64,000 bases of DNA from contig CAWBPM010000003.1 of NCBI GenBank assembly GCA_963790825.1, positions 253,681 to 317,680 on the forward strand. Direction: 5' to 3'. Positions 46,695 to 64,000 of this stretch are shown here, one piece after another; position 1 is the stretch's first letter; each line of letters starts with the position of its first letter. Made by a program: the position numbers and the translations under genes. This DNA is from Candidatus Levyibacteriota bacterium (GTDB taxonomy: Bacteria > Patescibacteriota > Microgenomatia > Levybacterales > UBA12049). The notes below the pieces were generated by a model that worked only from the letters and a program-made list of their open reading frames with translations, made no database searches and was not told where the DNA came from.

Positions 46695-48488
46695 TTATTC
46701 AGGTATTTCCGCTTCTGCGACGAGGTTTTCGGGAAGGCGGAACAGTCCTTCATCCAGTCTTTTTTGATCCAGGAAATGACTGATAAATCCAACTGAACGT
46801 GAGAGAACAAAAAGTGCGTTAAAGAACTCAGTTTCAACCAATTCCTGAAGTTTCGCATCGGAAAACCCTTCTTTTTCCGATAAAATATCCAGGAGAACTG
46901 CTGCGATCGCGCCGTCAACATTGAGAATTAAACTGCCTTTTTTCTCGGTGGTTATTTTTTCGACAGATTTTGCAAATGTCGTAAATCTTTTTTTCGGATA
47001 TTTCTCAACAAATTTAAGAACTGCAACTACACGGGGATCCGGTAAATCTATCCTGTATTTCCTGTGTCCAATTCCTGAGATGTATTGTTTTTTCAGAGCA
47101 AATTCTTCCACAAAATCACCTGGGAGGGTTCCTGATACTACACCGGTCAACCAATTTTCCGCTGCCTGATTAATCGCTCCGCCAAAACGGGGACCAATTG
47201 TTAACAACCCGGAAGCCAAAGAAGAAACCAAGTCCCGACCGGCTCTTGCAGTAATAATCGTATTTACCGCTCCTGAGACATACGGTCCGTGATCAACCAA
47301 GAGACGTAAGATAAAATCGACAAATGTTTCAAGTTCCCGTGAAACTTTTTTCTGGCCTAAAAACATCGAGATAGTAACTCCGGCAAAGGAGCGTGAATCA
47401 ACAAACGATAATAAATCTTCACCCAAAAGTGTTGCTTTTCCATCTTTATCACCTGAAATACTCGTGGTTATAAGTCCAGGCTGCCGATTTTGAAATTCTC
47501 TCAATATTGGTTCATAATTTTTTTCATCTGTTATCTCTTTCCCTTGGCAATTTTTTATCAGTGTTATAAATTCGCTAAACGTTTCCGCTACCTTTGCTCC
47601 GGCATTTTTCAAAGCAATGCGCTTGGCAGAGGCTGTTTCTCTGTCAGATTTTGCCATGGCTTTGGCGTGTCCAAATTGCGGCGGCTCTGAAAAAAGCTCG
47701 GCAATCGATCCGGCAATGTAACAAATTACTTCTTTCGTTACTTTTTTTTCTTTAAGTAGTGTCGCAAGTTCATATTCATCGGCTCCTCCTAATTCGCCGA
47801 AATAGATAATTGTTTTCGTTTTCGGATCTCTCTCAGCTTCTAAAAATGCCTCTCTGGGCGAAGTTATGGGAAAGCGGTCTCCGCCAAAAGAAAGAGCAAA
47901 TGATATGCGTCTACCCTGCTGAGTGACAATTCTGAGAAGCTCTCCTGTCATACCGCCGGAAGCGGAAAATACTGCCACATCACCCGGGGTAAATAAATGA
48001 GAAGCAATCAGCTGCCGGTAATCCACTCCGCCAATTGCACCAAGTTTTAAATGCCCTGGAAGAAGCAGGCCGACACTTGCAGGACCAATTAGAAATTTTT
48101 TTAGTTGTTTTGCCTTGTGATATAAACTAATTGCATGTTTTTCAGGAACATTTTCAGCAAAAATTACGCCGCCCAGTATATTCGGGCAGGAATCTAAGAT
48201 CTCTTCTGTACTTGTCAAAACCCGGCGCGGCGATAAGAGATTAAGAAAAAATGCTTTTTGACCGCGCAAATCCGTAGGAACATCCTGAATTGTCTTATAC
48301 ATCGGGAGCAGGATTTCCTGTTTTCCCCAAAAAAATCGCGCGAATCGTCTACCTGAAGCTATCAAATACAAAATACTCGGACTTCTGCCCGAAAGATAAT
48401 CAAAATCCAATATCGACTGGATGATCGGATAATTGCCTAAGACAACAATTTTTGTTTCTTTTTTTCGAATTTCTTCAAGATTAATCAT
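46695..48488 (-). CDS. aclA: ATP-citrate lyase large subunit (CoA-binding + CoA-ligase + citrate-synthase-like domains)
   Basis: SCS-alpha-like region with phosphohistidine motif QFGHAKAMA; C-terminal citrate-synthase-like GIGHRKYRIDLPDPRV; 597 aa. Confidence 0.7.
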   Translation of the reverse strand: MINLEEIRKKETKIVVLGNYPIIQSILDFDYLSGRSPSILYLIASGRRFARFFWGKQEILLPMYKTIQDVPTDLRGQKAFFLNLLSPRRVLTSTEEILDSCPNILGGVIFAENVPEKHAISLYHKAKQLKKFLIGPASVGLLLPGHLKLGAIGGVDYRQLIASHLFTPGDVAVFSASGGMTGELLRIVTQQGRRISFALSFGGDRFPITSPREAFLEAERDPKTKTIIYFGELGGADEYELATLLKEKKVTKEVICYIAGSIAELFSEPPQFGHAKAMAKSDRETASAKRIALKNAGAKVAETFSEFITLIKNCQGKEITDEKNYEPILREFQNRQPGLITTSISGDKDGKATLLGEDLLSFVDSRSFAGVTISMFLGQKKVSRELETFVDFILRLLVDHGPYVSGAVNTIITARAGRDLVSSLASGLLTIGPRFGGAINQAAENWLTGVVSGTLPGDFVEEFALKKQYISGIGHRKYRIDLPDPRVVAVLKFVEKYPKKRFTTFAKSVEKITTEKKGSLILNVDGAIAAVLLDILSEKEGFSDAKLQELVETEFFNALFVLSRSVGFISHFLDQKRLDEGLFRLPENLVAEAEIPE

Positions 48489-48499
48489 ATTTTTATTCG

Positions 48500-49675
48500 T
48501 TATCGCAAATACTGTAGTGCTTCCAGTACAACGTCAGTCAACACTTTTTCAGGTCCCCACACAACACCAAGTAACTCTTCTCTACCCAGAAAATCCCGCA
48601 TCAGAGATAATCCTTCTTCCTGGTTCGGGCCGCCGCGGCGAACGAAAATTTTTACGTTTTGTTTTTGAAGCATATTTTTTACCTCTTCAAGCGCTTTTAG
48701 AATTCCCCGAAAGGTAATTCGAACATCGGTAAAATTAGCAACTCCGCCGCCTATTACTAATGCCTTCTTTTTCGCAGAAGAAACTAAGAGAAGATCGAGC
48801 AAATTTTTAGCATAGATATATGATTCTTCTTCAGTCGGGTTTCCGCTATATTCGCCGTAATTGGCAACTTCCCGTCCAAGCCCTTGGTTATATGCTTCGT
48901 CTGCCAGGGCAATACTAGCGCCTCCTCCTGAGAGTATCATAAAAAGACTGCCGTTTGGATTTAGAACAGTAAGGTTGAATGCCGACTGGCTGTTTTCTGC
49001 CAATTTCAGGATGTTTTCTTCCTGAGTAGTTTTCGGCTTGCTTTCCCTGAAGTCTGCACTTGTCCATGCACCTTTAACCATAGATTCAGCTGCGCTATCA
49101 ACTTCCACCGCAGCATCAAGAAAAAATAAAGAATCCTTGCGGACCAAAAGAGGATTTATCTCGAGAAAAGAAAAATAATACTGATCAAATAGATCAATGA
49201 GTTTTGCTAACAAATTCTTAGGTAAAGAAGGAATTTCAATTTGCTGCAACCTTTCCTTCCTGCTTATAATTTTCTTTACAATTTTTTCGGGGTGTTGTTC
49301 TATGTCTACTCCACCTTGTTCTGAGAAAAGCAGCATGTAGCCCTCCCGCACTCTTTCAAGTGAAAGGTATTTTTCTTGTTTATTTTCATGTGCGATATAC
49401 GGTTCAATAAAAAATTGCCTGTAGCCTTTTTTTTGCCAATCTTCTATATTACGCTCTATCTCTTTAGCCATTTTGTTAATAGCCACCAATCCTTTTTTAA
49501 ACCTGCCTTTTACGCCTTGATCAACTTTTACAACGTAAAACGCAGTTTTATCAAGACTTTGTATCATTATTTGTAGATTTTCACTGGCCAAATAACATAA
49601 GCCTGGTTTTGGATCCTTAACAAGTGGCGAAAGCAATTGTTTGGCTTTGTATTCGCTGATCTTTTTTCTTGCCAT
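48500..49675 (-). CDS. aclB: ATP-citrate lyase small subunit (ATP-grasp, SucC-like)
   Basis: MARKKISEYKAKQLL... ATP-grasp succinyl-CoA-synthetase-beta-like fold, 391 aa, 12 bp upstream of aclA. Confidence 0.7.
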   Translation of the reverse strand: MARKKISEYKAKQLLSPLVKDPKPGLCYLASENLQIMIQSLDKTAFYVVKVDQGVKGRFKKGLVAINKMAKEIERNIEDWQKKGYRQFFIEPYIAHENKQEKYLSLERVREGYMLLFSEQGGVDIEQHPEKIVKKIISRKERLQQIEIPSLPKNLLAKLIDLFDQYYFSFLEINPLLVRKDSLFFLDAAVEVDSAAESMVKGAWTSADFRESKPKTTQEENILKLAENSQSAFNLTVLNPNGSLFMILSGGGASIALADEAYNQGLGREVANYGEYSGNPTEEESYIYAKNLLDLLLVSSAKKKALVIGGGVANFTDVRITFRGILKALEEVKNMLQKQNVKIFVRRGGPNQEEGLSLMRDFLGREELLGVVWGPEKVLTDVVLEALQYLR

Positions 49676-53756: not shown

Positions 53757-54060
53757 TGGTTAATCACCTCCTTTCTTATTTTAAGTATCTAAGTACACTT
53801 ACGCACTTGTTGTCATCCTGAGGATAAATGCCGGAGGATCTAGATTCTTCGCTACGCTCAGAATGACAATTTTTGCGTAAGTCGTATAAGTATCTTTTAA
53901 AACTAAGAGATATACATTATAGATGTGTAAGAAATAGGGATGTAAATCCGGACTGCGTTTTTACTTCGAGGAATTGAAAATCGAAGATTCCAAATAAACC
54001 AATGCCTGCCTTTCCAACTTGTCCCTCGTAGCTTTAGCGGCGGAGCAAGGAGGGTCCAGA

Positions 54061-54141
54061 ATCCGCAATTCAACAATCTAACACTTTATAAATTGCACAT
54101 TATACATTTTTCATTTTTCTTAATACCTAATTGACAATGCT
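54061..54141 (+). repeat. direct repeat copy A (~80 bp; 39-bp core 54099..54137 identical to 59570..59608), ends in TTGACAA
   Basis: Core ATTATACATTTTTCATTTTTCTTAATACCTAATTGACAA identical in both copies; upstream ~40 bp similar (TCCGCAATT...TTTATAAATTG.ACATT). Confidence 0.7.
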
Positions 54142-54150
54142 TTAGTCTGC

Positions 54151-54519
54151 GTGGCATCATTTAATTATATGAAGGTTATCAATTTTATCACGGGGTTTAT
54201 TATCGTTATGCTTCCGGTGTTTTGGGTAAGTATTGCACTCGTTGGATCGATCGGACTACTTATACTTCGGGGCAATACATTTCTTCTGTCCATTATTACT
54301 TTTGCGATTGCACTCATTTTTACTGTTATCTTGTCAACAATTCTCGGGATGGCACTCGGTAATTCATTGGTCAAAGGTGGTGGCAATGCTCTCGTAGCCA
54401 GAATTCTCGCTCTTGTCATTGTGGTCGGTATATTCTGTTTTATCTTCTTTTTTGCTGTGCATTTATCAGTGGCGAGCCAAGCTCTGCCGACTACTTCGCT
54501 GCTAAATCCGGGCAAATGA
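54151..54519 (+). CDS. small membrane protein (3 TM), hypothetical
   Basis: 122-aa hydrophobic ORF directly downstream of repeat copy A. Confidence 0.35.
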   Translation: MASFNYMKVINFITGFIIVMLPVFWVSIALVGSIGLLILRGNTFLLSIITFAIALIFTVILSTILGMALGNSLVKGGGNALVARILALVIVVGIFCFIFFFAVHLSVASQALPTTSLLNPGK

Positions 54520-54670
54520 GTTTGTCGCTGAGCAGAATTTCTTGTCAAATCCACATCGTCATCATCTTTGTCATTGCAAGGATGACCACTTTAGTAGACA
54601 GACCAAAGAGAAATTAAAACTGCCGAAACAAGGCTTCAAGAATATGACTCAAAGAAAAAATAGGAAGATA

Positions 54671-54699
54671 TTGACAAATATCGCAAAATTGCTATAATA
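54671..54699 (+). promoter_or_regulatory. consensus sigma-70 promoter TTGACA-N17-TATAAT upstream of XRE regulator
   Basis: TTGACA 54671-54676, TATAAT 54694-54699, then GGAAGGG RBS and ATG 54729. Confidence 0.55.
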
Positions 54700-54728
54700 T
54701 AGTGGAATTTAATAGGAAGGGTATCTAT

Positions 54729-55001
54729 ATGGACTGGAGTACACATAAAAAACAATTATTAAAAGATCCGAAAGTAAGACAAGCCTTAAAAGAGACTGAA
54801 TTAGAATATCAGGTAGCTCGTGCTGTAATTGAAGCGAGAATTAATAAGGGATTAACTCAACAAGATTTAGCACAAAAACTCAATACAACTCAATCTGTTA
54901 TTTCTCGTGTAGAAAATGCGAAAACTACACCTACACTTGGTTTTCTTAAAAGGTTAGCGACTGCACTGAATGCATCTCTACAAGTTCAGTTTAAAGCTTA
55001 A
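54729..55001 (+). CDS. XRE-family helix-turn-helix transcriptional regulator (HigA/antitoxin-like)
   Basis: LTQQDLAQKLNTTQSVISRVENAKTTPTLGFLKRLATAL HTH_XRE signature; start taken at ATG 54729 (MDWSTHKK) instead of ORF-track 54702. Confidence 0.7.
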   Translation: MDWSTHKKQLLKDPKVRQALKETELEYQVARAVIEARINKGLTQQDLAQKLNTTQSVISRVENAKTTPTLGFLKRLATALNASLQVQFKA

Positions 55002-55264
55002 CCTACTCTCCGCAATTTTATCTTTAATTGTCTGCTCAGATAAATAATCTGAATTACTCAAGTATTAGGTGTAGAAAGCCGGTCATATCGGCGGGAAAGG
55101 AAGAAGAAAATAATACCGGCTGCCCCGAAACCTTTTTAGGATCCATATCCCCTTCTCTATTTAGGACATGCAGATTGTCTACCTGGCTGGAAATGGCTTT
55201 GTTTAAGATCGAGCCAAGCTGCAGAAAGTCCTCATTCGTGCGTGATATTCGTTAATTTGGGTAC

Positions 55265-55291
55265 TTGACAACTCCTGTTATTAGGTATAAT
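55265..55291 (+). promoter_or_regulatory. near-consensus sigma-70 promoter TTGACA-N15-TATAAT immediately upstream of ATPase gene
   Basis: TTGACA 55265-55270, TATAAT 55286-55291; ATG at 55301 only ~9 nt downstream (short or leaderless mRNA). Confidence 0.4.
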
Positions 55292-55300
55292 AATGGGAGT

Positions 55301-56440
55301 ATGGATCCCAATATTAAGTATATTAAGCGTGATTTGGAAGCTACTCTCCATACTTACCTTAACAAAGGTAAGGTTATTGTGTTATATGGAGCTCGACAAG
55401 TTGGGAAAACAACTCTTACTCAAAATCTTTTCAATGATAAAAATAACGTATTATATCTCTCATGTGACCAATCCCGTATTCAAGAACAGATAGTCCCTGA
55501 TGCATTAGCGCTTAGTAGGGTAATTACTGATTATAAAAATGTTATTTTCGATGAAGCGCAATATCTTAGTGACCCTGGATTAATTTTAAAAATCTTTACA
55601 GACAATTTTCCGGATAAAAATGTAATTGCTTCGGGATCATCCTCATTCGATCTTGCTCATAAATTAACGGAGCCATTAACAGGACGGCACTATAAATTTT
55701 TACTTTTCCCATTAGTACTATCTGAAATGGCACATTCAGTATCTCCGATAGATATAAAGTTCCAACTTGAACAAGCTCTTATTTATGGAACTTATCCTGA
55801 AGTTTTTAAACAAAAAACTAATGAGGACAAAATATTAATTTTACAAACATTAACTGACGCTTATCTCTATAAAGATATACTGACTTTTAATCTTGTAAAA
55901 AACAGTCAAAAAGTAAAAGAACTATTGATTGCGCTTGCACTACAAGTCGGTAACGAAGTTTCTTATTCTGAACTTGCTAATACTGTAGGCATTGATAGAA
56001 AAACCATTGAATATTACATCGACCTGTTGGAAAAATCCTTTGTGATTTTCAGATTGTTCGGATTTAGTCGAAACTTAAGAAGCGAGATAAACAGAAAAGT
56101 TAAAATATATTTCTACGATACAGGTGTTAGAAATACGCTCATTAATAATTTTAATGACTTGACACTTCGTAATGACGGCGGTGCAATATTTGAAAATTTT
56201 GCCGTAGCAGAAATGGTTAAAAAAGAAGCAAATAAACCACAGAAAGCAAACTTTTATTTTTGGAGAACATATGAACAGAAAGAGATCGACTTAATATCTG
56301 AAAAAAACGGGGTTATTACTGCATATGAAATGAAACTACATAAACCTAAGAAGATAAACAGCTTTACATCATTTCAAGAATTATATCCGGGAAGCAAATT
56401 GAACATTATCACGCTTGATAAACTTCTCGAAGAGATATAA
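55301..56440 (+). CDS. AAA+ superfamily ATPase of the COG1373 / AAA_14-DUF4143 type
   Basis: VIVLYGARQVGKTTL P-loop close to N-terminus, DEAQ Walker B, C-terminal DUF4143-like region; ORF-track start 55265 is a TTG inside the promoter, ATG 55301 preferred. Confidence 0.65.
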   Translation: MDPNIKYIKRDLEATLHTYLNKGKVIVLYGARQVGKTTLTQNLFNDKNNVLYLSCDQSRIQEQIVPDALALSRVITDYKNVIFDEAQYLSDPGLILKIFTDNFPDKNVIASGSSSFDLAHKLTEPLTGRHYKFLLFPLVLSEMAHSVSPIDIKFQLEQALIYGTYPEVFKQKTNEDKILILQTLTDAYLYKDILTFNLVKNSQKVKELLIALALQVGNEVSYSELANTVGIDRKTIEYYIDLLEKSFVIFRLFGFSRNLRSEINRKVKIYFYDTGVRNTLINNFNDLTLRNDGGAIFENFAVAEMVKKEANKPQKANFYFWRTYEQKEIDLISEKNGVITAYEMKLHKPKKINSFTSFQELYPGSKLNIITLDKLLEEI

Positions 56441-56747
56441 TTCTTTTTTTTTGTTTGGGGGTGCACTACTCTCTTAAGTTACTACTCATGCCTACTCCTC
56501 CCCGTTTGGGACTACGCGAATTTCCTATTTTGGATATTTACCGCTTCCACGTGTTCAACTACTGATTGAGAATAAAGAATGTTTGATCCTTGCTTAGAGA
56601 AACCAAAGAGGTTCCCGGTAGATCTAAGAAAAAGTAAAAAACAGTGTTTTATTGACAAACCTACGCCCAAATGATTACGATTAAAAATCCTTTCGCAGCC
56701 CAAAAATACGTCGCCAATTCCAAATAACCCCGATAAGAAATCTGTAA

Positions 56748-57506
56748 TTACTCTTTTGTAGCATTTAAGCTTTTTTCTGAAAGTAAAAATGTATAAATTA
56801 TTTCAATTTCTTCTGGAATAAGAGTGGCATTTGGTTTATGAAGAATAAGCCAATTATGAAATTTATGTTCTCCGATCCAAATTCCCGGTTCTATTTCTCC
56901 TTTAATGGTATTTTTATCTATATTTCCATTAACAAATTCCAGCACACTTGTTACGTTATACAGTTTATTGAATTGTTGTTGTAAATTAGTACTTAACCAA
57001 TTTTTCTCCGCCCAAGTTTGCTTAATATAATCTTTTTCTGGAAGTCTATTGTTAATAAAAAGCTGTCCATTTCTGAAACTTATGATGCCTCTATGCGCTT
57101 TTACTTCAATTGTGAAAATTCCCGTCGGTCCGATAATTATATTATCTATGTTTCCTCTACCTGTACTAAAATCGTTAATCCATTTATATCCCGTAGGTAA
57201 TTCTTCAAGAGATTTATCTACTTTCCATTCTGCTCCGGCGCCTTTTCCCCAGGTTTGATAATTCCTCTTTATATCTCGCCAATTTTGTTTATCCCATCGT
57301 TTTATAATATTAAAGATTATGTATACAATTATTGAAGCAATAATAACACCCGTAGATGTATAAGCAACATCTTGCGCCATCTTGAGATACATAAATGCCA
57401 CAAATAATGCAAAAACTCCGAGAATTATTCCAATCCAGCGGAAAATCTTTTTGTTCTTAATATATGTTTTGTATGTATATGAATCTTTATTATCAGCCAT
57501 GAACAA
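56748..57506 (-). CDS. membrane-anchored NERD (nuclease-related domain) protein
   Basis: Two N-terminal TM helices, then GRGNIDNIIIGPTGIFTIEVKAHRGII, characteristic of NERD domains. Confidence 0.6.
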   Translation of the reverse strand: MFMADNKDSYTYKTYIKNKKIFRWIGIILGVFALFVAFMYLKMAQDVAYTSTGVIIASIIVYIIFNIIKRWDKQNWRDIKRNYQTWGKGAGAEWKVDKSLEELPTGYKWINDFSTGRGNIDNIIIGPTGIFTIEVKAHRGIISFRNGQLFINNRLPEKDYIKQTWAEKNWLSTNLQQQFNKLYNVTSVLEFVNGNIDKNTIKGEIEPGIWIGEHKFHNWLILHKPNATLIPEEIEIIYTFLLSEKSLNATKE

Positions 57507-57638
57507 TAGTATTTCTACTTAACCTGTGCACCTTCATTATTCCGCCCATCGAAGAGCTTTGTCAAACAGAAAGAGGTTGTCTTGGGAATGCGGGATATCG
57601 CATTCGTCTTTTGTATCTAGCTTCATCACAAAGAAAAC

Positions 57639-58070
57639 TTAAGGTAAATATAATTTGACGAACTTCTTCTGTTCGTTAACTTCAATTAGGGGAAATTTAT
57701 CCATAAATCCCTCTCTCCCTAGGATAGGCATATTTTGATCAAATGAGAAATCTATTTCTGTTACAAAATTAATTCCTCCAACAAATAGTTTTACTGTATG
57801 TGTATATGCATCTATTGGTTTGCTTACTCCTATTCCTCCAATTTTTTTATTTATACCTTTTTTCACATCGATTCCTAAATTAGCTGCTATAATTGCAGGA
57901 AATAAATTCCTATCCGATCCTGTATCAAATAATGCTTCGATTTTATGCAAGAACATCTTATGGTTCATCGATAGCATCAATGGTATTCTTGGACGAAGCA
58001 CAGTTACCTGCTTACCGGTAACGTTGTTTATATTGGCATCAGGAACATAATAAAATGTCACATTTTTCAT
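57639..58070 (-). CDS. retropepsin-like (clan AA) aspartic protease
   Basis: EALFDTGSDRNLFPAIIAANLGI with DTGS active-site motif in a 143-aa protein; start overlaps transposase stop by 1 nt. Confidence 0.55.
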   Translation of the reverse strand: MKNVTFYYVPDANINNVTGKQVTVLRPRIPLMLSMNHKMFLHKIEALFDTGSDRNLFPAIIAANLGIDVKKGINKKIGGIGVSKPIDAYTHTVKLFVGGINFVTEIDFSFDQNMPILGREGFMDKFPLIEVNEQKKFVKLYLP

Positions 58071-59338
58071 TATGGAGACAAATATTGATTTGCAGGAGGA
58101 AGGAATGAAATAGTTAAACCCTTTTCATTTTTAATTAGCTTCAATAACTCATCTAATTTTTTAGCAGACTTAACGATTTTTTTTCTATCTTCAGTAAAAG
58201 CCACCCATTTATTTTGATATTTAATTAATTGTTTTATATCCATACTTACATTATAATCACCATTAATAAAATTGCAAGTTGATGTAGAGGTTACGGAGTT
58301 ATTAGACATACCTCCTTGTTGTTGCAGATATCCCAGTGGAGTTTTAAGTCCCAAGGATTTATGTACCCGCTTTGTATTGTAGAATAGCAGATATTCAATG
58401 AGTTTTGAAGAGAAGAGTTTCGGGTCATGGAATAAATGAAGATTTTCATCAATGAATTCTTCCTGAATTGTTCTGTTGAATCGCTCAATAGTTCCATTGA
58501 TCTTGCAGCATCTTGGATAGATAAATACCTGATGGATATGTTGTTGTTTCAAGTATGCTTCAAAATCCCCCAGAAACTCCAGTCCATTGTCTGTTTGTAT
58601 GGTGGTAATTTGAATGGGATAAACAAACTGCAGTTTCTTGAAGAAGTCTACAGTTACACCGCTCGTCAGTTTTGTATAAGGCAGGCTAAATGCAAACCTT
58701 AACTTCACATCAATTGCTGTTAAAAAGAATACTCTTACTCCATCAACAAATTTAATCACTGTATCCATTTCCATATAGCCAAAGCTTTCCGGTCTGGGTG
58801 GTCTTTTAATCCTGTCTCGCTTCTTTCGTTTGGCCTGGGCAAACTTATGGGAGGGATTATGATAGATCTTGCCACTCTTTTGAAAAAAGTAATTGTTACG
58901 CTTGATGACTTTCCCAATGGTTGATTCCTGAATAATAGGCAGGTCTTCCTTTAGACAGTACTCATCGAGCAATGGTTTAATTTTCTCTTTCCCCAGTCTC
59001 ACATGCTCTTCTCTTAAGAGCTTGATATATGCAACTACTTTAGGATGGGTTTCCATGACTCTTTTTGTTTTCGGAGTTGTTGGAGTGGGAATAAGTGAAG
59101 AAATGGAATTCCTACTCATCCGTAATCGTTTCTTCCATACAAAGATAGTGTTTCTTCCAACACCAAATGCTTTCTTAGTAGTTTTCTCTCCATACTCATC
59201 ATAAAACTCTATTATCTTTAGTCTCTCTTTAGCTACTTCATCTTTAGAGAATCTTTTTAGACTCCTCAGCATTGTTTTCACCTCCTCAATGCCTTTGATT
59301 CTACTAAAGATTGGATATGCTTTTGCGTAATGATCCAT
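58070..59338 (-). CDS. IS481-family-like DDE transposase/integrase (HTH + rve core) with ~90-aa C-terminal extension
   Basis: N-terminal HTH; rve core ...IQTDNGLEFLGDF...IYPRCCKINGTIERFNRTIQEEF...YNTKRVHKSLGLKTPLGYL. Confidence 0.75.
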   Translation of the reverse strand: MDHYAKAYPIFSRIKGIEEVKTMLRSLKRFSKDEVAKERLKIIEFYDEYGEKTTKKAFGVGRNTIFVWKKRLRMSRNSISSLIPTPTTPKTKRVMETHPKVVAYIKLLREEHVRLGKEKIKPLLDEYCLKEDLPIIQESTIGKVIKRNNYFFQKSGKIYHNPSHKFAQAKRKKRDRIKRPPRPESFGYMEMDTVIKFVDGVRVFFLTAIDVKLRFAFSLPYTKLTSGVTVDFFKKLQFVYPIQITTIQTDNGLEFLGDFEAYLKQQHIHQVFIYPRCCKINGTIERFNRTIQEEFIDENLHLFHDPKLFSSKLIEYLLFYNTKRVHKSLGLKTPLGYLQQQGGMSNNSVTSTSTCNFINGDYNVSMDIKQLIKYQNKWVAFTEDRKKIVKSAKKLDELLKLIKNEKGLTISFLPPANQYLSP

Positions 59339-59523
59339 AGTTACGAATTGTCTAATATGTTTCGTAACTTATACAGTTGAACTGTTTACGTCGTACAACA
59401 CGTTATCAGAATTAGTACCGCACTGGGACGCCGGCGTGGTAGGAGCAGATGCTGCTGTGATTTTGCGGCGGTTACAAAAAGAAAAAGTTGTCCGGTCTAG
59501 CTCTTAACTTTTATCTCCCCACA

Positions 59524-59616
59524 CCTCCGCAATTTAATAATCCAGCAATTTATAAATTGTACATTCTGCATTATACATTTTTCATTTTTCTTAATACCTA
59601 ATTGACAAAGCCTTTA
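59524..59616 (+). repeat. direct repeat copy B (see 54061..54141); ends TTGACA-N17-TTTAAT
   Basis: 39-bp core 59570..59608 identical to copy A; followed by plausible -10 TTTAAT (59626-59631). Confidence 0.7.
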
Positions 59617-59815
59617 AAAAGTTATTTAATAGGCTTAACAATTAATCAAGAGCGGTGGCGAGAGTTCTGGCTCAGTGACCCACCCGGCAACCGGTAATTA
59701 TTAAGCGGTGCCAAACCCAGCCCTTGGAAAGGGACGGATTTGACCAAGAAAATTTGGTAAACAATTTTTTTGTATTATACCTCTCTTTCAGGAGAGGTTT
59801 TTTGTTGGAAAGGAG
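59617..59815 (+). promoter_or_regulatory. ~200-nt GC-rich structured leader (riboswitch/attenuator-like) ending in an intrinsic terminator just before the RBS of 59816 gene
   Basis: GAGCGGTGGCGAGAGTTCTGGCTCAGTGACCCACCCGGCAACCGG...AGCGGTGCCAAACCCAGCCCTTGGAAAGGGACGGATTTGACC, then hairpin + T7, then GGAAAGGAGGTGGG-ATG. Confidence 0.5.
59779..59804 (+). terminator. intrinsic terminator hairpin ACCTCTC-TTTCA-GGAGAGGT followed by TTTTTTG
   Basis: Read directly from sequence; 11 nt upstream of start codon 59816. Confidence 0.65.
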
Positions 59816-60238
59816 GTGGGTATGATAAGTATCGATAAAGATTCTTTGTTTGTTTTTTTGCCAACCCGTTTAGAGATAAAAGAAAGACCTGAGCTTAATG
59901 TTTTCCCTTTTAATGTATTTGTTTCATCTCACGGATTAAATGAGGAAGGAAAAATGGTTGTGTGTTCAGTCTTTTACGATCCCGACTTATCTACTTATAA
60001 AGATAACGGTGATATTAAAAGTTTAAGTTATAAAAATATTTTCAATCAGGACTATAAACTTATTATTTCTTTTAATGCCGTTAAGAATACTTACAGTTGC
60101 GCTAAATACAATAAGGATAAAATTGTAGGCTGTGCTGACGGGGAGAATGATTGGAAACGATTTTTTCTACATGTCGGGTTACTGGGTTTTGCAAAAGGAG
60201 AAACCTATTTGTTTGATGAAATTAAACAAACAAACTAA
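59816..60238 (+). CDS. hypothetical protein, paralog 1 of tandem pair
   Basis: 140 aa; shares ERPELNVF..NVFV, DYKL(I/V)IS(F/Y)N, W(K/R)(R/Q)FF(L/I)HVG(L/I)LG(F/L)A(K/N)GET(Y/C)LF with the next ORF. Confidence 0.5.
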   Translation: MGMISIDKDSLFVFLPTRLEIKERPELNVFPFNVFVSSHGLNEEGKMVVCSVFYDPDLSTYKDNGDIKSLSYKNIFNQDYKLIISFNAVKNTYSCAKYNKDKIVGCADGENDWKRFFLHVGLLGFAKGETYLFDEIKQTN

Positions 60239-60276
60239 AGGTCTTAAATCTTTAAGGTGGAGGGGGATGAAATATT

Positions 60277-60678
60277 ATGGATATAAAAAATGGTTCCCTA
60301 TATTCTTTTATACCAAGACCCTTGGCTATAGAAGACAGACCGGAACTAAACGTATTTTCCTACAATGTTTTCGTTGCAATGTACAGAATAAACCAGGAAG
60401 GAAAAAGAGAAATGGGGTCAGTAGTGTATGAACCAGATTTAACAACTTACAAAAGAGACGGAGATATACAAACTTTAAGTTATTTAAATAAATATAATCA
60501 CGATTATAAGCTTGTTATTTCGTATAATAGCGAAATAAAAACTTACCGCTGTGATAAATTCAAGGGAGAAGAAAACTTAGGAATTGCCTTAGGAAATAAT
60601 TGGAAACAATTTTTTATTCATGTCGGGATACTTGGTCTTGCCAACGGAGAAACTTGTCTATTTCAAGAAATTAATTAA
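60277..60678 (+). CDS. hypothetical protein, paralog 2 of tandem pair
   Basis: 133 aa; ~45% identical to 59816..60238; RBS GGTGGAGGGGGATG upstream. Confidence 0.5.
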   Translation: MDIKNGSLYSFIPRPLAIEDRPELNVFSYNVFVAMYRINQEGKREMGSVVYEPDLTTYKRDGDIQTLSYLNKYNHDYKLVISYNSEIKTYRCDKFKGEENLGIALGNNWKQFFIHVGILGLANGETCLFQEIN

Positions 60679-60762
60679 TAAACTTTTCTTATAACTAGTT
60701 TCGCATTTTGCAACTTGTACTTGAAATATAGGATTTACGAGTTTATCTTGATCCTTGCGCAG

Positions 60763-60788
60763 AGGAGCCGAAGAGGCTCCTAATTATT
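60763..60788 (+). terminator. hairpin AGGAGCC-GAAGA-GGCTCCT followed by AATTATT between convergent genes
   Basis: 7-bp perfect stem read directly from sequence; weak T-tract. Confidence 0.4.
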
Positions 60789-60816: not shown

Positions 60817-61725
60817 TTAAATCTGTTGTTTAATAATATCAACTGAGCCCAAATTGTGCGCCGAAGATATAGCTTGAAGAGTCTTTATAGCTTTTAATAG
60901 CACAATAACCTTACTTTTATAAATACCACTTCCCGCACCTCCACAATATTCATTTATTGATGGATATTTTTTATATATTTCATTTAACGTTAAATTATTC
61001 TGATCTTTGGCAGTATCAATTATCCCCTGGGAACAGCCAGTATTATTAACGTCAGTATATTTAGTTAATAAATTGTTGAAATAATCCAGATGTGAAATAT
61101 TATCAAGCAAGAATGCCTGCGTAGATGCGTTCCATATATAATAATCCTTCCACTCCATCGCGCAACCGGCGCATCCTATTGCTCCTAAACTGCGTGTTTC
61201 GGTAAAAGAAGATTCTGTATTTGAAAATTGATAATTTAAATACCTGCCGTAGATATCTCCTTCTTCGTTTTCAGGTGAATATACTCTTTTGGGGATACCA
61301 TTCTGCATATGATATATTCCTATTGTTTCAATTGTGCCTGTGGGATGCTCATCATACGCAGTTATGACAAAAAACTGAGGCACATCATCTGGGAATACTT
61401 TTATATCTTTCACCTGTGTAAACAAATTAGGTACCGTATATTTATTTTCTAAAACTCTGCTACCTAAAGTTAAATACCCTAACGTATTAAAGTCTATATG
61501 ATCTCCGCAAAAGATTATGTTTGCCGATAGCCCTTTTAGATTTGAATATGAATCACAAGTTTGATTATTGCTATCAACTGACCCAATGAGAGCAACTTTA
61601 TTAATTTTTGCTGGACCGCTGCTTTGGATCACCATGTGCTGTTGCGCACGAGGTCGTGCAAAAAAATAGTATGTATATAAATTTGTAGTAATAAGAATTA
61701 ATATGAATAATAAAATTTTCTTCAT
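60817..61725 (-). CDS. hypothetical secreted/membrane-anchored protein with multiple Cys
   Basis: 302 aa; N-terminal MKKILLFILILITTNLYTYYFFA hydrophobic segment; Asn/Tyr-rich. Confidence 0.45.
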   Translation of the reverse strand: MKKILLFILILITTNLYTYYFFARPRAQQHMVIQSSGPAKINKVALIGSVDSNNQTCDSYSNLKGLSANIIFCGDHIDFNTLGYLTLGSRVLENKYTVPNLFTQVKDIKVFPDDVPQFFVITAYDEHPTGTIETIGIYHMQNGIPKRVYSPENEEGDIYGRYLNYQFSNTESSFTETRSLGAIGCAGCAMEWKDYYIWNASTQAFLLDNISHLDYFNNLLTKYTDVNNTGCSQGIIDTAKDQNNLTLNEIYKKYPSINEYCGGAGSGIYKSKVIVLLKAIKTLQAISSAHNLGSVDIIKQQI

Positions 61726-61734
61726 GAATAGGTA

Positions 61735-62544
61735 TTACTGGCCCATATAGGCCGGGATTGGATCAAGAGGAGCTACTTTTTTACCATCCCAGTGAAATCG
61801 GACAATCGAAGCCCCTAAAGTTGAGCAGCATAGAGGATCATCCTTCCGATACAGTGTATATTCAACTGCTATCGTATCCTCCGTTGTCCATTTAACCATT
61901 ATATCTGTGCCGGCGAACGCTTCATCTGTCCCAACTGGCTTCCAGTTATAAAAGAAAAATGGTTTTTGGCAGTGTCCGTCTGCAGAACCTGTACATGTCC
62001 CGATTAAAACGGCGAATGGAGATAAATTCAAAGAAGTGTTTTTACTCGGATCATAGATTGTATAACCGTCTTTCTTAATTAATTCAACGGCAGCATCAAT
62101 TGTATTCGGGGCCGGGTTACTTTTGACCTGTACAAAGCTACCATTTTTATAAAGATAACGTATCTCTTTTAATTTATCTGATGAGTTTACCTCATCGCTA
62201 TAAGTTAATACGAATCCATTTCCGGTCCCTGTCTCCCTTACCCCTATCTGCATCATTTCAGGCGATTGGAAGATTACTTTACCCTTCTTTATTATCAATA
62301 ACTTTCCTGCCCCCTGAGTCATGGCTGTAGGAACAATAACTTCACTCTCATCATTTTTATAATCACCATCTACTGAGAAACTATAGTATTCAGGGCATCT
62401 GTAGGAATTACATTCCGGAATTTCCTGACTAACTGATGCCGCTTTCTCTTTAATCACATTAGTGTGTATAAATAAATAAGTCACAGCGGAGCCAAGAAGG
62501 AGAGAAACGGCAGCGATTAGCAACCCGAGCTTCAATTTCATCAT
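61735..62544 (-). CDS. hypothetical secreted protein
   Basis: 269 aa; signal-like MMKLKLGLLIAAVSLLLGSAVTYLF; 9-bp gap to downstream gene. Confidence 0.45.
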   Translation of the reverse strand: MMKLKLGLLIAAVSLLLGSAVTYLFIHTNVIKEKAASVSQEIPECNSYRCPEYYSFSVDGDYKNDESEVIVPTAMTQGAGKLLIIKKGKVIFQSPEMMQIGVRETGTGNGFVLTYSDEVNSSDKLKEIRYLYKNGSFVQVKSNPAPNTIDAAVELIKKDGYTIYDPSKNTSLNLSPFAVLIGTCTGSADGHCQKPFFFYNWKPVGTDEAFAGTDIMVKWTTEDTIAVEYTLYRKDDPLCCSTLGASIVRFHWDGKKVAPLDPIPAYMGQ

Positions 62545-62699
62545 ATACTCAACTGTAGTATATTCTGAACTAGCAGTATTGGCAATATTTATGCGTTAGA
62601 GTGCTTGAAGCTATATAGCTACTATAGGTGAGATGTCTGGCGCATTATTCCTGAAGATGCTCAGTTACTAGCTTTTTCGTAATTTCTTCTTAAATATAT

Positions 62700-63584
62700 T
62701 TATATCTCATTCGCAGAAACTATGGTTTTTAATTCTAATCCAAGTGCTTTGAAATGCTCCTCACCACATCTGATTTTTGCTGCTTCGTTATTTCTTAACT
62801 TGTCAAAGTCTTTTGTACTTTTTGTTTCACGAACCAGATAAAGTGTAGAATCTTCATGCTTTACAATAGCCCAATCAGGATTGTAAGTACCAAGTGGTGT
62901 TGATACTTTGAACCAAGCAGGTAATTTAACAAAAAGTTTAATATATTCTTTTCTTTCTAAATCTTCTGCAAACCTTCGCTCAACTTCAGATTCAAATTCG
63001 ATACAGTCATAAACGGATTTTTTGACAGATACGAGATTGTTTAAATATGAAATGATCTCCTCTTCTTCAAATAACCTCATTTCATATTCTTCTCCCGCAA
63101 TTTTTTCATATTTGATTCCACTTAAAATTAGCTTTTGCAGTTCTCTTTTTATAATTTCAACAACAATATCCATAAATTTTTGAGGATTAATTAGAAACTC
63201 CTCTAGTCTGCTTGAGCGTATAAGTATTTGAGCAATGGTATGTCTTGTTAATTCTGTCTCCTTTTGTATATAGCTAATAATGTCGGGCAATAGAAATGAC
63301 GATTCAATCGTTGTAACTTGATTCTTAACCTCAGTAGATTCAACCCCCCTTTCATCAATATCAACAAGTGCTTTAATATACTGAATCTTTATTGGGTTAA
63401 TTCTATCCATTAATTTCAAATCTGACACACAATTCCCAATTAAGTCATCTGTAGTATATACAACTGAATACGTAGTTTTTTTATTGATTTTTTCCCAAAG
63501 AATTTTAAAAGTTATATTGAAAGCCATCAGCCCCGTTTTTTGTTTATTAATGGTCATGGTAATGACAGTGAAATTACTGGACAC
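62700..63584 (-). CDS. PD-(D/E)xK nuclease-fold protein resembling the C-terminal endonuclease domain of type III restriction Res subunits (stand-alone or fragment)
   Basis: KLPAWFKVSTPLGTYNPDWAIVKHEDSTLYLVRETKSTK contains the PD...E.K motif arrangement. No helicase domain upstream. N-terminus overlaps the plus-strand ORF, so the real start may be M10 or M20. Confidence 0.45.
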   Translation of the reverse strand: MSSNFTVITMTINKQKTGLMAFNITFKILWEKINKKTTYSVVYTTDDLIGNCVSDLKLMDRINPIKIQYIKALVDIDERGVESTEVKNQVTTIESSFLLPDIISYIQKETELTRHTIAQILIRSSRLEEFLINPQKFMDIVVEIIKRELQKLILSGIKYEKIAGEEYEMRLFEEEEIISYLNNLVSVKKSVYDCIEFESEVERRFAEDLERKEYIKLFVKLPAWFKVSTPLGTYNPDWAIVKHEDSTLYLVRETKSTKDFDKLRNNEAAKIRCGEEHFKALGLELKTIVSANEI

Positions 63585-64000
63585 GATTATGAGACACTAG
63601 TAAAAATTGGCGAAAATGAATATCTATTAGCAGGGAGAATTACGTATGCACGTAGTTGTTCCGCGGCAAAAGTTTTAGGTGAAAATGTAGCGGAGAATAA
63701 TTCAACAACATTCATAGGCTATAACCGAAGCTATATTTTAGGAAGAAATCCATTAAAAGTGGCTAGTCCTTTAGATGATGAAGTTGCGAAATTATTTCTT
63801 GAACCTTCAAATCTAATCCCAATATCAATAATAAAAGGACGAACAGCTGAAGAGGCGTATAATAAGTCGCAAGAAGCAATGAGAAAGAATTTTTCCTTTA
63901 TGCTTTCTTCAAAAGCTACATCTAACCAAAGAGATGCTGCTGTATATCTTTGGTCAAATTTGAGCAGTCAAGTATTACTCGGAGATAAACTGGCCCATCT
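63540..64000 (+). CDS. CHAT/caspase-like (clan CD) peptidase homolog, 5'-truncated and running off window end
   Basis: In-frame stop at 63411-63413, no ATG (first possible TTG at 63540). FINGHGNDSEITGHDYE (His-Gly dyad) and ITYARSCSAAK (Cys) spaced as in CHAT/caspase folds, followed by the conserved downstream helix (AEEAYNKSQEAM). The His lies only ~15 aa from the earliest possible start, so the N-terminal half of the domain is missing. Confidence 0.35.
   Translation, partial: MFINGHGNDSEITGHDYETLVKIGENEYLLAGRITYARSCSAAKVLGENVAENNSTTFIGYNRSYILGRNPLKVASPLDDEVAKLFLEPSNLIPISIIKGRTAEEAYNKSQEAMRKNFSFMLSSKATSNQRDAAVYLWSNLSSQVLLGDKLAH

Follow-up and report, generated by a model that had tools for sequence, protein, structure and literature searches.

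A repeated promoter-like sequence and a SAM-I riboswitch cassette in an accessory region of a Candidatus Levyibacteriota genome

Introduction

Promoter reuse, in which highly similar promoter-upstream sequences precede unrelated genes within one genome, has been catalogued together with putative mobile promoters (Matus-Garcia, Nijveen and van Passel, 2012; PMC3575422). Short repeats that bear promoters are documented in that work, and the case of a promoter copy tied to a riboswitch is mentioned there explicitly (PMC3575422). Identical-core direct repeats placed around several kilobases of accessory genes are also the layout of integrative islands, in which they represent the attL and attR sites. 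Here we analyse a stretch of ~5.5 kb, bracketed by direct repeats of about 80 bp, in the genome of a Candidatus Levyibacteriota bacterium (Patescibacteriota; assembly GCA_963790825.1, contig CAWBPM010000003.1, positions 253,681 to 317,680; this whole stretch of 64 kb is called the window below, and all coordinates refer to it). An initial annotation had offered two readings of the repeats, as att-like scars of an island or as a duplicated promoter cassette. The evidence fits the second, and we think it probable that the arrangement reflects promoter reuse or capture at the junction with a riboswitch cassette, in a patchwork, defence-rich accessory region, rather than the arrival of one mobile element.

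The locus shares with described promoter reuse (PMC3575422) a highly similar promoter-upstream sequence ahead of unrelated genes in one genome, with one of the copies tied to a riboswitch. It differs in that just two copies are seen and that one of them is joined to a cassette inside the -35 box. The likeness to attL/attR islands lies in the identical-core direct repeats around several kilobases of accessory genes; in contrast to such islands, the locus has no site-specific recombinase and no tRNA-type target, its interior is a mosaic, and its right repeat abuts a mobile unit.

Anatomy of the repeat pair

Repeat copy A occupies positions 54062-54144 and copy B positions 59526-59616, both on the forward strand and delimited by gapped alignment. 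The identical 39-bp cores of the initial annotation are real, and in the gapped alignment they gain one base to reach 40 bp (54098-54137 and 59569-59608). The preceding stretch of about 40 bp, described as similar, is so: 34 bp upstream of the core are 85% identical between the copies, with a 7-bp indel separating the two parts. Mismatches are unevenly spread (0 of 40 positions in the core versus five of 34 upstream; Fisher p = 0.017), and similarity between the copies in the 200 nt beyond either repeat end lies within the range of shuffled sequences, so that none was detected there. A search for the 39-mer that tolerated as many as three mismatches located exactly two sites in the window and none in 100 shuffles. 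An exact scan with a 33-mer of the core returned no match in the GTDB representatives (185,579 genomes), the JGI metagenomes or IMG/VR. The repeat itself has neither terminal inverted repeats nor a target duplication of its own.

Both copies terminate in a -35 box, ATTGACAA (TTGACA), as had been proposed, and in both a -10-like hexamer lies 17-18 nt downstream, giving two predicted promoters. The promoter-like site completed by copy A (54131-54160, +) combines TTGACA with CATCAT at a spacing of 18 nt, the latter with an upstream TG that would make it an extended -10 (TGgCATCAT). At copy B, the predicted promoter of the riboswitch operon (59602-59630, +; TTGACA, 17 nt, TTTAAT) was read from the sequence and takes its -35 from the repeat and its -10 from the adjoining cassette. 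Ahead of the -35 box, copy A contains an imperfect palindrome, CACTTTATAAATTG, followed by an A/T-rich tract; copy B has a perfect 14-bp palindrome, CAATTTATAAATTG, at 59546-59559, with an imperfect counterpart in copy A. Such an anatomy would suit a promoter-upstream cassette in which the palindrome, as a possible operator, and A/T-rich DNA lead up to the -35 box. A highly similar promoter-upstream sequence precedes non-homologous genes with correct -35/-10 geometry, the pattern by which reused promoters are recognized. The window as a whole has 19 TTGACAA boxes, and eight of the 19 fall in these 5.5 kb.

Another short direct repeat, D5, of 33 nt (56583-56615 and 60748-60780; 27 of 33 positions, or 82%, identical) is located in intergenic DNA at the 3' ends of the two repeat-initiated units and contains a hairpin in which one pair has been changed on both sides, from A-T to G-C. 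D5 was considered as a second frame element and dropped, since it is not significant alone (one of 25 shuffles reaches its score).

A mobile riboswitch cassette

Directly downstream of copy B lies a riboswitch that the initial annotation had missed. This SAM-I aptamer (S-box; SAM, S-adenosylmethionine; 59640-59744, +) scores 49.7 bits against a gathering threshold of 44.4 for the Rfam model RF00162; it is full-length and begins 10 bases after TTTAAT, within 32 nt of copy B. The intrinsic terminator of the expression platform follows at 59779-59798 (+), as an 8-bp stem and then a T-run. Downstream come two genes, here called p138 (59822-60238, +), the first riboswitch-controlled gene, and p133 (60277-60678, +), its tandem paralogue with 53-55% identity.

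Together these form an exchanged cassette of 1,084 bp (59601-60684, +) that begins at the -35 box, ends 6 nt beyond the stop codon of p133 and has the 8 bp ATTGACAA in common with the repeat core. Proteins with 100% identity to p138 and p133 are encoded on a second contig, of 751 kb, which comes from a different organism, and these two are the only proteins of the window to occur on a second large contig; the 16 other window proteins that are present in the collection, including five proteins of the 5.5-kb stretch that were tested, are each confined to one contig and have no relative of at least 90% identity. In the Logan assembly graph the cassette is a unitig of its own. This unitig, L002, spans exactly 59601-60684 and has k-1 overlaps with its neighbours, the one on the right being exactly 30 nt. 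Its start at 59601 differs from the break at 59579 that a k = 31 graph would show if the 40-bp repeat were the only cause. At copy A, in contrast, the unitig starts exactly with the last 30-mer of the core.

Related loci outline the same unit. A related organism with 81% nucleotide identity (L030) is homologous only across 59615-60682, and has a different upstream gene and a different right flank. In L030 and a further locus, L031, which are the closest relatives of the cassette, the homologous part of the promoter begins with the -35 box and the ~52 bp that form most of the repeat are missing, and the repeat is absent from all 20 related cassette loci. Because the relatives are homologous only from the -35 on and lack the repeat, the repeat would be the local sequence and the cassette the incoming one. 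The 100% protein identity on the second contig and the separate unitig point to a unit of 1,084 bp that was recently exchanged by horizontal transfer. In L030, a direct repeat of ~27 bp, CTTTTTGTGGCTAAGAAGTCAAATTAA (positions 3-30 and 2507-2535 of that locus), brackets a Trypsin_2 gene together with the riboswitch cassette.

SAM-I riboswitch regulons normally serve methionine and SAM metabolism. The present cassette is like the S-box regulons of Firmicutes and others in its aptamer family and its terminator-type OFF switch, but p138 and p133 are not genes of methionine, cysteine or SAM biosynthesis or transport; they are Patescibacteria-only small beta-barrel-like proteins on a genome-hopping cassette. 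The linkage is strict, as a SAM-I riboswitch precedes a p138-family gene in 21 of 21 loci examined (L026 and L029-L048), as it does in the window. The family comprises 113 cluster representatives, of which those named by source are hypothetical proteins of Patescibacteria; none of the 113 has a Pfam match except two fusion proteins, and the family is absent from IMG/VR. The AlphaFold model of p138 is confident (pLDDT 89.9, pTM 0.83) and shows an all-beta fold with a C-terminal helix; it has no significant match in the PDB, the weak matches being lipocalin-like barrels. A literature search on SAM riboswitches in Patescibacteria (the candidate phyla radiation, or CPR) and on the p138 family found nothing.

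The make-up of the cassette varies among loci. In four of them (L033, L036, L040 and L042) the riboswitch and the p138 gene are separated by a gene for a protein of 82-97 aa that has the motif G.S.G.C..LA.KH..NF..RV, and in four others (L026, L029, L034 and L039) this protein is fused as an N-terminal domain, giving forms of 222 aa; the cassette of the window has two p138 domains and neither the 82-97-aa protein nor the domain. Two RNA motifs, LOOT RNA and DUF3800-IX RNA, occur near p138 cassettes of other metagenome loci (L044 4849-4962, -; L045 4416-4544, +; L026 2210-2280, -). The neighbours of p138 range from housekeeping genes to restriction-modification (R-M) and AbiE systems. A conserved partner for the cassette was sought and dropped, as the neighbours in 10 loci were a mixture of housekeeping and defence genes, and none of these 10 loci had methionine or SAM genes beside the cassette.

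A bold interpretation would make riboswitch and p138/p133 a mobile cassette that senses a drop in SAM, such as that caused when a phage SAM lyase attacks methylation-dependent defences, and responds only then by expressing a novel type of small beta-barrel effector, with the repeat as a resident promoter landing pad; cassettes would then be captured by recombination in the -35 box, with no dedicated integrase. We regard this as distinctly improbable. In its soberer form, p138 would represent a new Patescibacteria-specific function related to SAM or methionine.

An IS481-family insertion sequence between the repeats

The 'integrase' of the initial annotation is the transposase of a complete insertion sequence (IS) of the IS481 family, read through into a neighbouring gene. 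The IS is 1,093 bp long (58283-59375, -) and is delimited by terminal inverted repeats at 58283-58308 and 59349-59375 that are 26 and 27 nt long, both arms beginning TGTA. They are the best inverted repeat around the transposase (1.2% of shuffles match its score), and they are flanked by a perfect 5-bp target-site duplication, GTTGA, at 58278-58282 and 59376-59380. A first candidate pair of ends, 58331 and 59428, was replaced by 58283 and 59375 on account of the TGTA ends, the perfect 5-bp duplication and a unitig break: Logan unitig L003 breaks off at 58312, and the distance from there to the IS end is exactly k-1 (30 nt), as expected if the IS sits in more than one context in that sample.

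The transposase ORF (open reading frame) has its ATG at 59338 and runs for 352 codons within the IS, with no stop before the IS end. Its best NCBIfam family is the IS481 model NF033577 (E = 1e-42; model positions 2-281 of 284, residues 39-335 of the 422-aa ORF), yet the score of 146.6 bits compares with a curated cut-off of 224. Pfam recognizes rve and rve_3 in the transposase, with rve_3 above threshold. Thus the element resembles the IS481 family in its DDE (rve) transposase, its length of ~1.1 kb, its inverted repeats starting with TGT and its short target duplication (5 bp), and departs from it in that the transposase is divergent and its ORF has no internal stop and continues into the neighbouring gene. 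The stop-less frame (58070-59338, -) crosses 13 codons of flank into a DUF5678 gene, and annotation consequently shows a false integrase-DUF5678 fusion protein. We conclude that the IS is a recent simple insertion unrelated to the 80-bp repeats. Its insertion point is 5 bp upstream of the -35 box in the promoter that serves the DUF5678 gene and the protease gene described below.

Separately promoted modules

The genes between the repeats have separate promoter-like sites (at 54671, 55265, 57565 on the reverse strand and 58277 on the reverse strand), and together they make up a mosaic that comprises an orphan ORF, an XRE regulator, an ATPase, a NERD-domain gene, a DUF5678-protease operon and the IS. 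As regards the gene content initially listed, the XRE, AAA_14/DUF4143 and NERD assignments stand by hidden Markov model and the DTGS motif of the protease is present, and the integrase is corrected to an IS481-family transposase.

The orphan hydrophobic ORF (54169-54519, +; 116 aa from its ATG), initially described as a protein with three transmembrane segments (3-TM), is known as an ORF only. It has no homologue among 1.84 billion representative proteins, and neither of the starts tested is present in the protein collection. The gene calls of one Logan contig have an antisense ORF in its place; the codon score is 0.116 for the 3-TM ORF versus 0.045 for the antisense ORF, a modest margin.

Next is an XRE-family HTH regulator of 90 aa (54729-55001, +; Pfam HTH_3, E = 4e-15), which obtains only generic HTH matches in PADLOC and NCBIfam. 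Its promoter (54671-54698, +; TTGACA, 16 nt, TATAAT) agrees with the consensus at 12 of 12 positions, and both this and the predicted promoter of the ATPase gene (55265-55294, +) are as previously described. The ATPase (55301-56440, +) combines AAA_14 with a PD-(D/E)XK-type DUF4143 domain (Pfam E = 8e-41) and matches the PADLOC profile PDLC04789 (PDC-S01) over its full length (E = 4.5e-134; profile positions 2-371 of 375). DUF4143 is classed among the PD-(D/E)XK families (PMC3424549), and PDC-S01, an ATPase with PD-(D/E)XK, is a very common single-gene defence candidate that is unvalidated (PMC12988326); one PDC-S01 representative gave no protection against T4, T5 or T7 (bioRxiv 10.1101/2024.09.26.614923). 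Our gene is like PDC-S01 in its full-length match, its AAA_14 and DUF4143 domains, its solitary state and its defence-rich surroundings. It is unlike validated defence genes in that the PDC-S01 family is itself still a candidate (PMC12988326).

A membrane-anchored NERD-domain protein of 250 aa (56748-57500, -; Pfam NERD, E = 3.8e-13; N-terminal hydrophobic segments) is encoded convergently to the ATPase, and each of the two genes has its own promoter-like site, that of the NERD gene being predicted at 57565-57536 (-). The suggestion that HTH, ATPase and NERD genes resemble a defence or abortive-infection module is supported as to the presence of defence-type genes and is not supported as to a conserved module. 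The ATPase is a full-length PDC-S01 match, and defence genes lie to the right; the NERD protein has no PADLOC match, and in the three ATPase contexts examined the genes are not conserved neighbours. Three plasmid-borne homologues of the ATPase (39-44% identity) have unrelated neighbourhoods, and none of these three contexts has a NERD gene nearby; HTH-type genes stand near two of the three, and they are not XRE-like partners.

A fourth ATTGACAA box, with the -10-like hexamer TACGAT (56651-56681, +), lies between the convergent ATPase and NERD genes, where it faces the NERD gene from its 3' side in antisense orientation and may signal an antisense RNA. Logan contigs L049 and L003, which meet between the XRE and ATPase genes, have an overlap of only 18 nt (55110-55127), versus 30 nt at other junctions.

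The last module is a two-gene operon on the reverse strand. Its first gene encodes a DUF5678 protein of 57 aa (58070-58243, -; Pfam DUF5678 and alignment to relatives) behind a predicted promoter at 58277-58250 (-; TTGCAA, 16 nt, TATAAT), and its second a putative retropepsin-like aspartic protease of 143 aa (57639-58070, -), the stop of the one overlapping the start of the other by 1 nt. The protease scores 22.7 bits against Asp_protease_2, whose cut-off is 24.3, and has the motifs DTGS, IGGIG and ILGRE in its translation. Its homologues number 49 cluster representatives besides itself, with full-length forms of 141-144 aa. In the six contexts retrieved for two of these homologues, a gene of 57-62 aa precedes the protease in six of six, with the same 1-nt overlap, and no integrase is near. 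Pfam DUF5678 matches the C-terminus of the 422-aa 'integrase' ORF, the last 57 codons of which are 52-53% identical to the small genes upstream of the protease homologues; alignment with these relatives moved the start of the DUF5678 gene from 58309, as first assumed, to 58243. DUF5678 and protease thus appear to form a conserved two-gene operon, in which the partner of the protease is the DUF5678 gene, not an integrase. In the relatives (L050-L055) the pair is found near toxin-antitoxin genes of the RelB/ParE and YafQ types.

The -10-like boxes of the orphan ORF, the ATPase gene and the DUF5678 gene end 6-9 nt before the ATG (54155-54171, 55286-55303 and 58243-58255). These three distances suggest that the transcripts may be leaderless.

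Genomic surroundings

The left flank is core genome, with a class I LysRS, MurB, GreA and a DUF362 protein whose closest representatives are from Roizmanbacteria and other Patescibacteria at ~55% amino acid identity. On the right, a Logan contig from the same organism extends past the window and carries accessory and defence genes (60817-64000 of the window and L001 1-7421): a RE_endonuc or type III REase-like domain, RadC, a Cas4-like PD-(D/E)XK nuclease, a SLFN-type helicase resembling AbiO, Nhi and PDC-S41, a MazG-like gene and a full-length SoFic (E = 1e-104). With core genes to the left and defence genes to the right, the 5.5 kb lie within a longer, defence-rich accessory region that starts at ~53.8 kb and continues past the right end of the window.

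To the left of copy A, the intergenic region between divergent genes contains a 26-nt inverted repeat (53797-53882; 81% complementary, 34-nt loop), inside which Logan contig L004 ends; Rfam gave no match there. Further left, at 46695-49675 (-), two adjacent genes carry domains of the ATP-citrate lyase/citryl-CoA type (Citrate_bind, ATP-grasp, CoA-ligase, Citrate_synt), which are unexpected in an apparently reduced Patescibacteria genome.

Origin of the arrangement

According to the explanation that we hold to be probable, promoter reuse or capture, the repeats would be two copies of one promoter-upstream cassette, in which a palindrome near -80 and a UP-like tract rich in A/T precede the -35 box, each copy being finished by a different -10 and driving a different unit. 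Copy A would drive the orphan ORF, possibly reading on towards the XRE gene. Copy B, joined to the 1,084-bp cassette inside the shared 8-bp -35 box, would drive the SAM-I riboswitch, with termination at 59779-59798 when SAM is bound and expression of p138 and p133 otherwise. It is plausible that the copies arose by duplication or by recombination at the -35 microhomology, and the perfect 40-bp block beside sequence of 85% identity points to recent conversion or to selection on promoter function. That the resemblance of the copies is a chance similarity of A/T-rich intergenic DNA has next to no probability: the region is indeed A/T-rich and short promoter-like words recur in it, but 40 identical bases with a further 29 of 34 in register, a 39-mer seen in no shuffle and ungapped repeat scores of 40-44 against a shuffle maximum of 22 refute it. 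It is quite unlikely, too, that the pair belongs to a dispersed family of short mobile promoters, in the manner of Correia or ERIC, with more copies elsewhere in the 418-kb genome and a merely coincidental adjacency here. Precedent for promoter-bearing short repeats exists (PMC3575422), and the D5 pair at the 3' ends of both repeat-initiated units would make a second short repeat; against this, two copies 5.5 kb apart are all that 64 kb contain, the repeat lacks terminal inverted repeats and target duplication, the exact core is missing from the representative genomes, the JGI metagenomes and IMG/VR, and D5 does not reach significance by itself.

Several observations do weigh against promoter reuse. 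A direct repeat, an interior and a second direct repeat are also the outcome of circle integration through the repeat, and a perfect 40-bp block adjoining 85% identity resembles an att core; interior G+C is 0.30-0.35 versus 0.40-0.46 in the left flank. Moreover, it is uncertain whether the 3-TM ORF, the unit fed by copy A, is a real gene, the count of repeat copies covers the 64-kb window of the genome, and the relatives of the flanking DUF362 gene have no synteny and no riboswitch, so that none of them displays the site before or after the event. The alternative to which some of these observations lead is that the interior (54138-59525) arrived as a single circle whose own repeat copy recombined with one on the chromosome, either site-specifically in trans or through RecA via the 40-bp block, and that the copies are attL- and attR-like scars. 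Such an entry would account for the 5.4 kb between direct repeats, for an identical core with diverged arms on one side only, and for an accessory content of lower G+C than the left flank. We nevertheless consider it unlikely. Neither in nor beside the stretch is there a tyrosine or serine recombinase: in the ORFs of 54-60 kb, Pfam, NCBIfam and PADLOC found only the DDE rve transposase, and this is encoded by the self-contained IS, which is flanked by a 5-bp duplication of its own. Rfam found no tRNA or other conserved target gene in the window. The interior modules are separately promoted, and the two whose relatives were examined, the protease pair and the ATPase, occur singly elsewhere. The right repeat end coincides with the boundary of the riboswitch cassette, which is another mobile unit and not stable chromosome, and a second copy of the repeat would have to pre-exist. 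On these grounds (no recombinase, a mosaic interior and an IS that is a separate event) the ~5.5-kb island with att-like scars of the initial annotation is not upheld.

Implications

Regarded as an island, the finding is ordinary: a variable region that contains a reused promoter, an IS and a defence candidate of a common kind. It does provide a worked example of how the accessory region of an ultra-small genome is built from separately promoted modules, and of how an incoming cassette can become fused to a resident promoter, with the join exactly at the -35 box. What came to light as a by-product may matter more: a SAM-I riboswitch strictly linked to an unannotated, Patescibacteria-only protein family, in a unit that moves between genomes. 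The riboswitch cassette is the most interesting feature nearby and merits its own study, as a handle on SAM economy, or on SAM-linked conflict, in organisms not yet grown alone.

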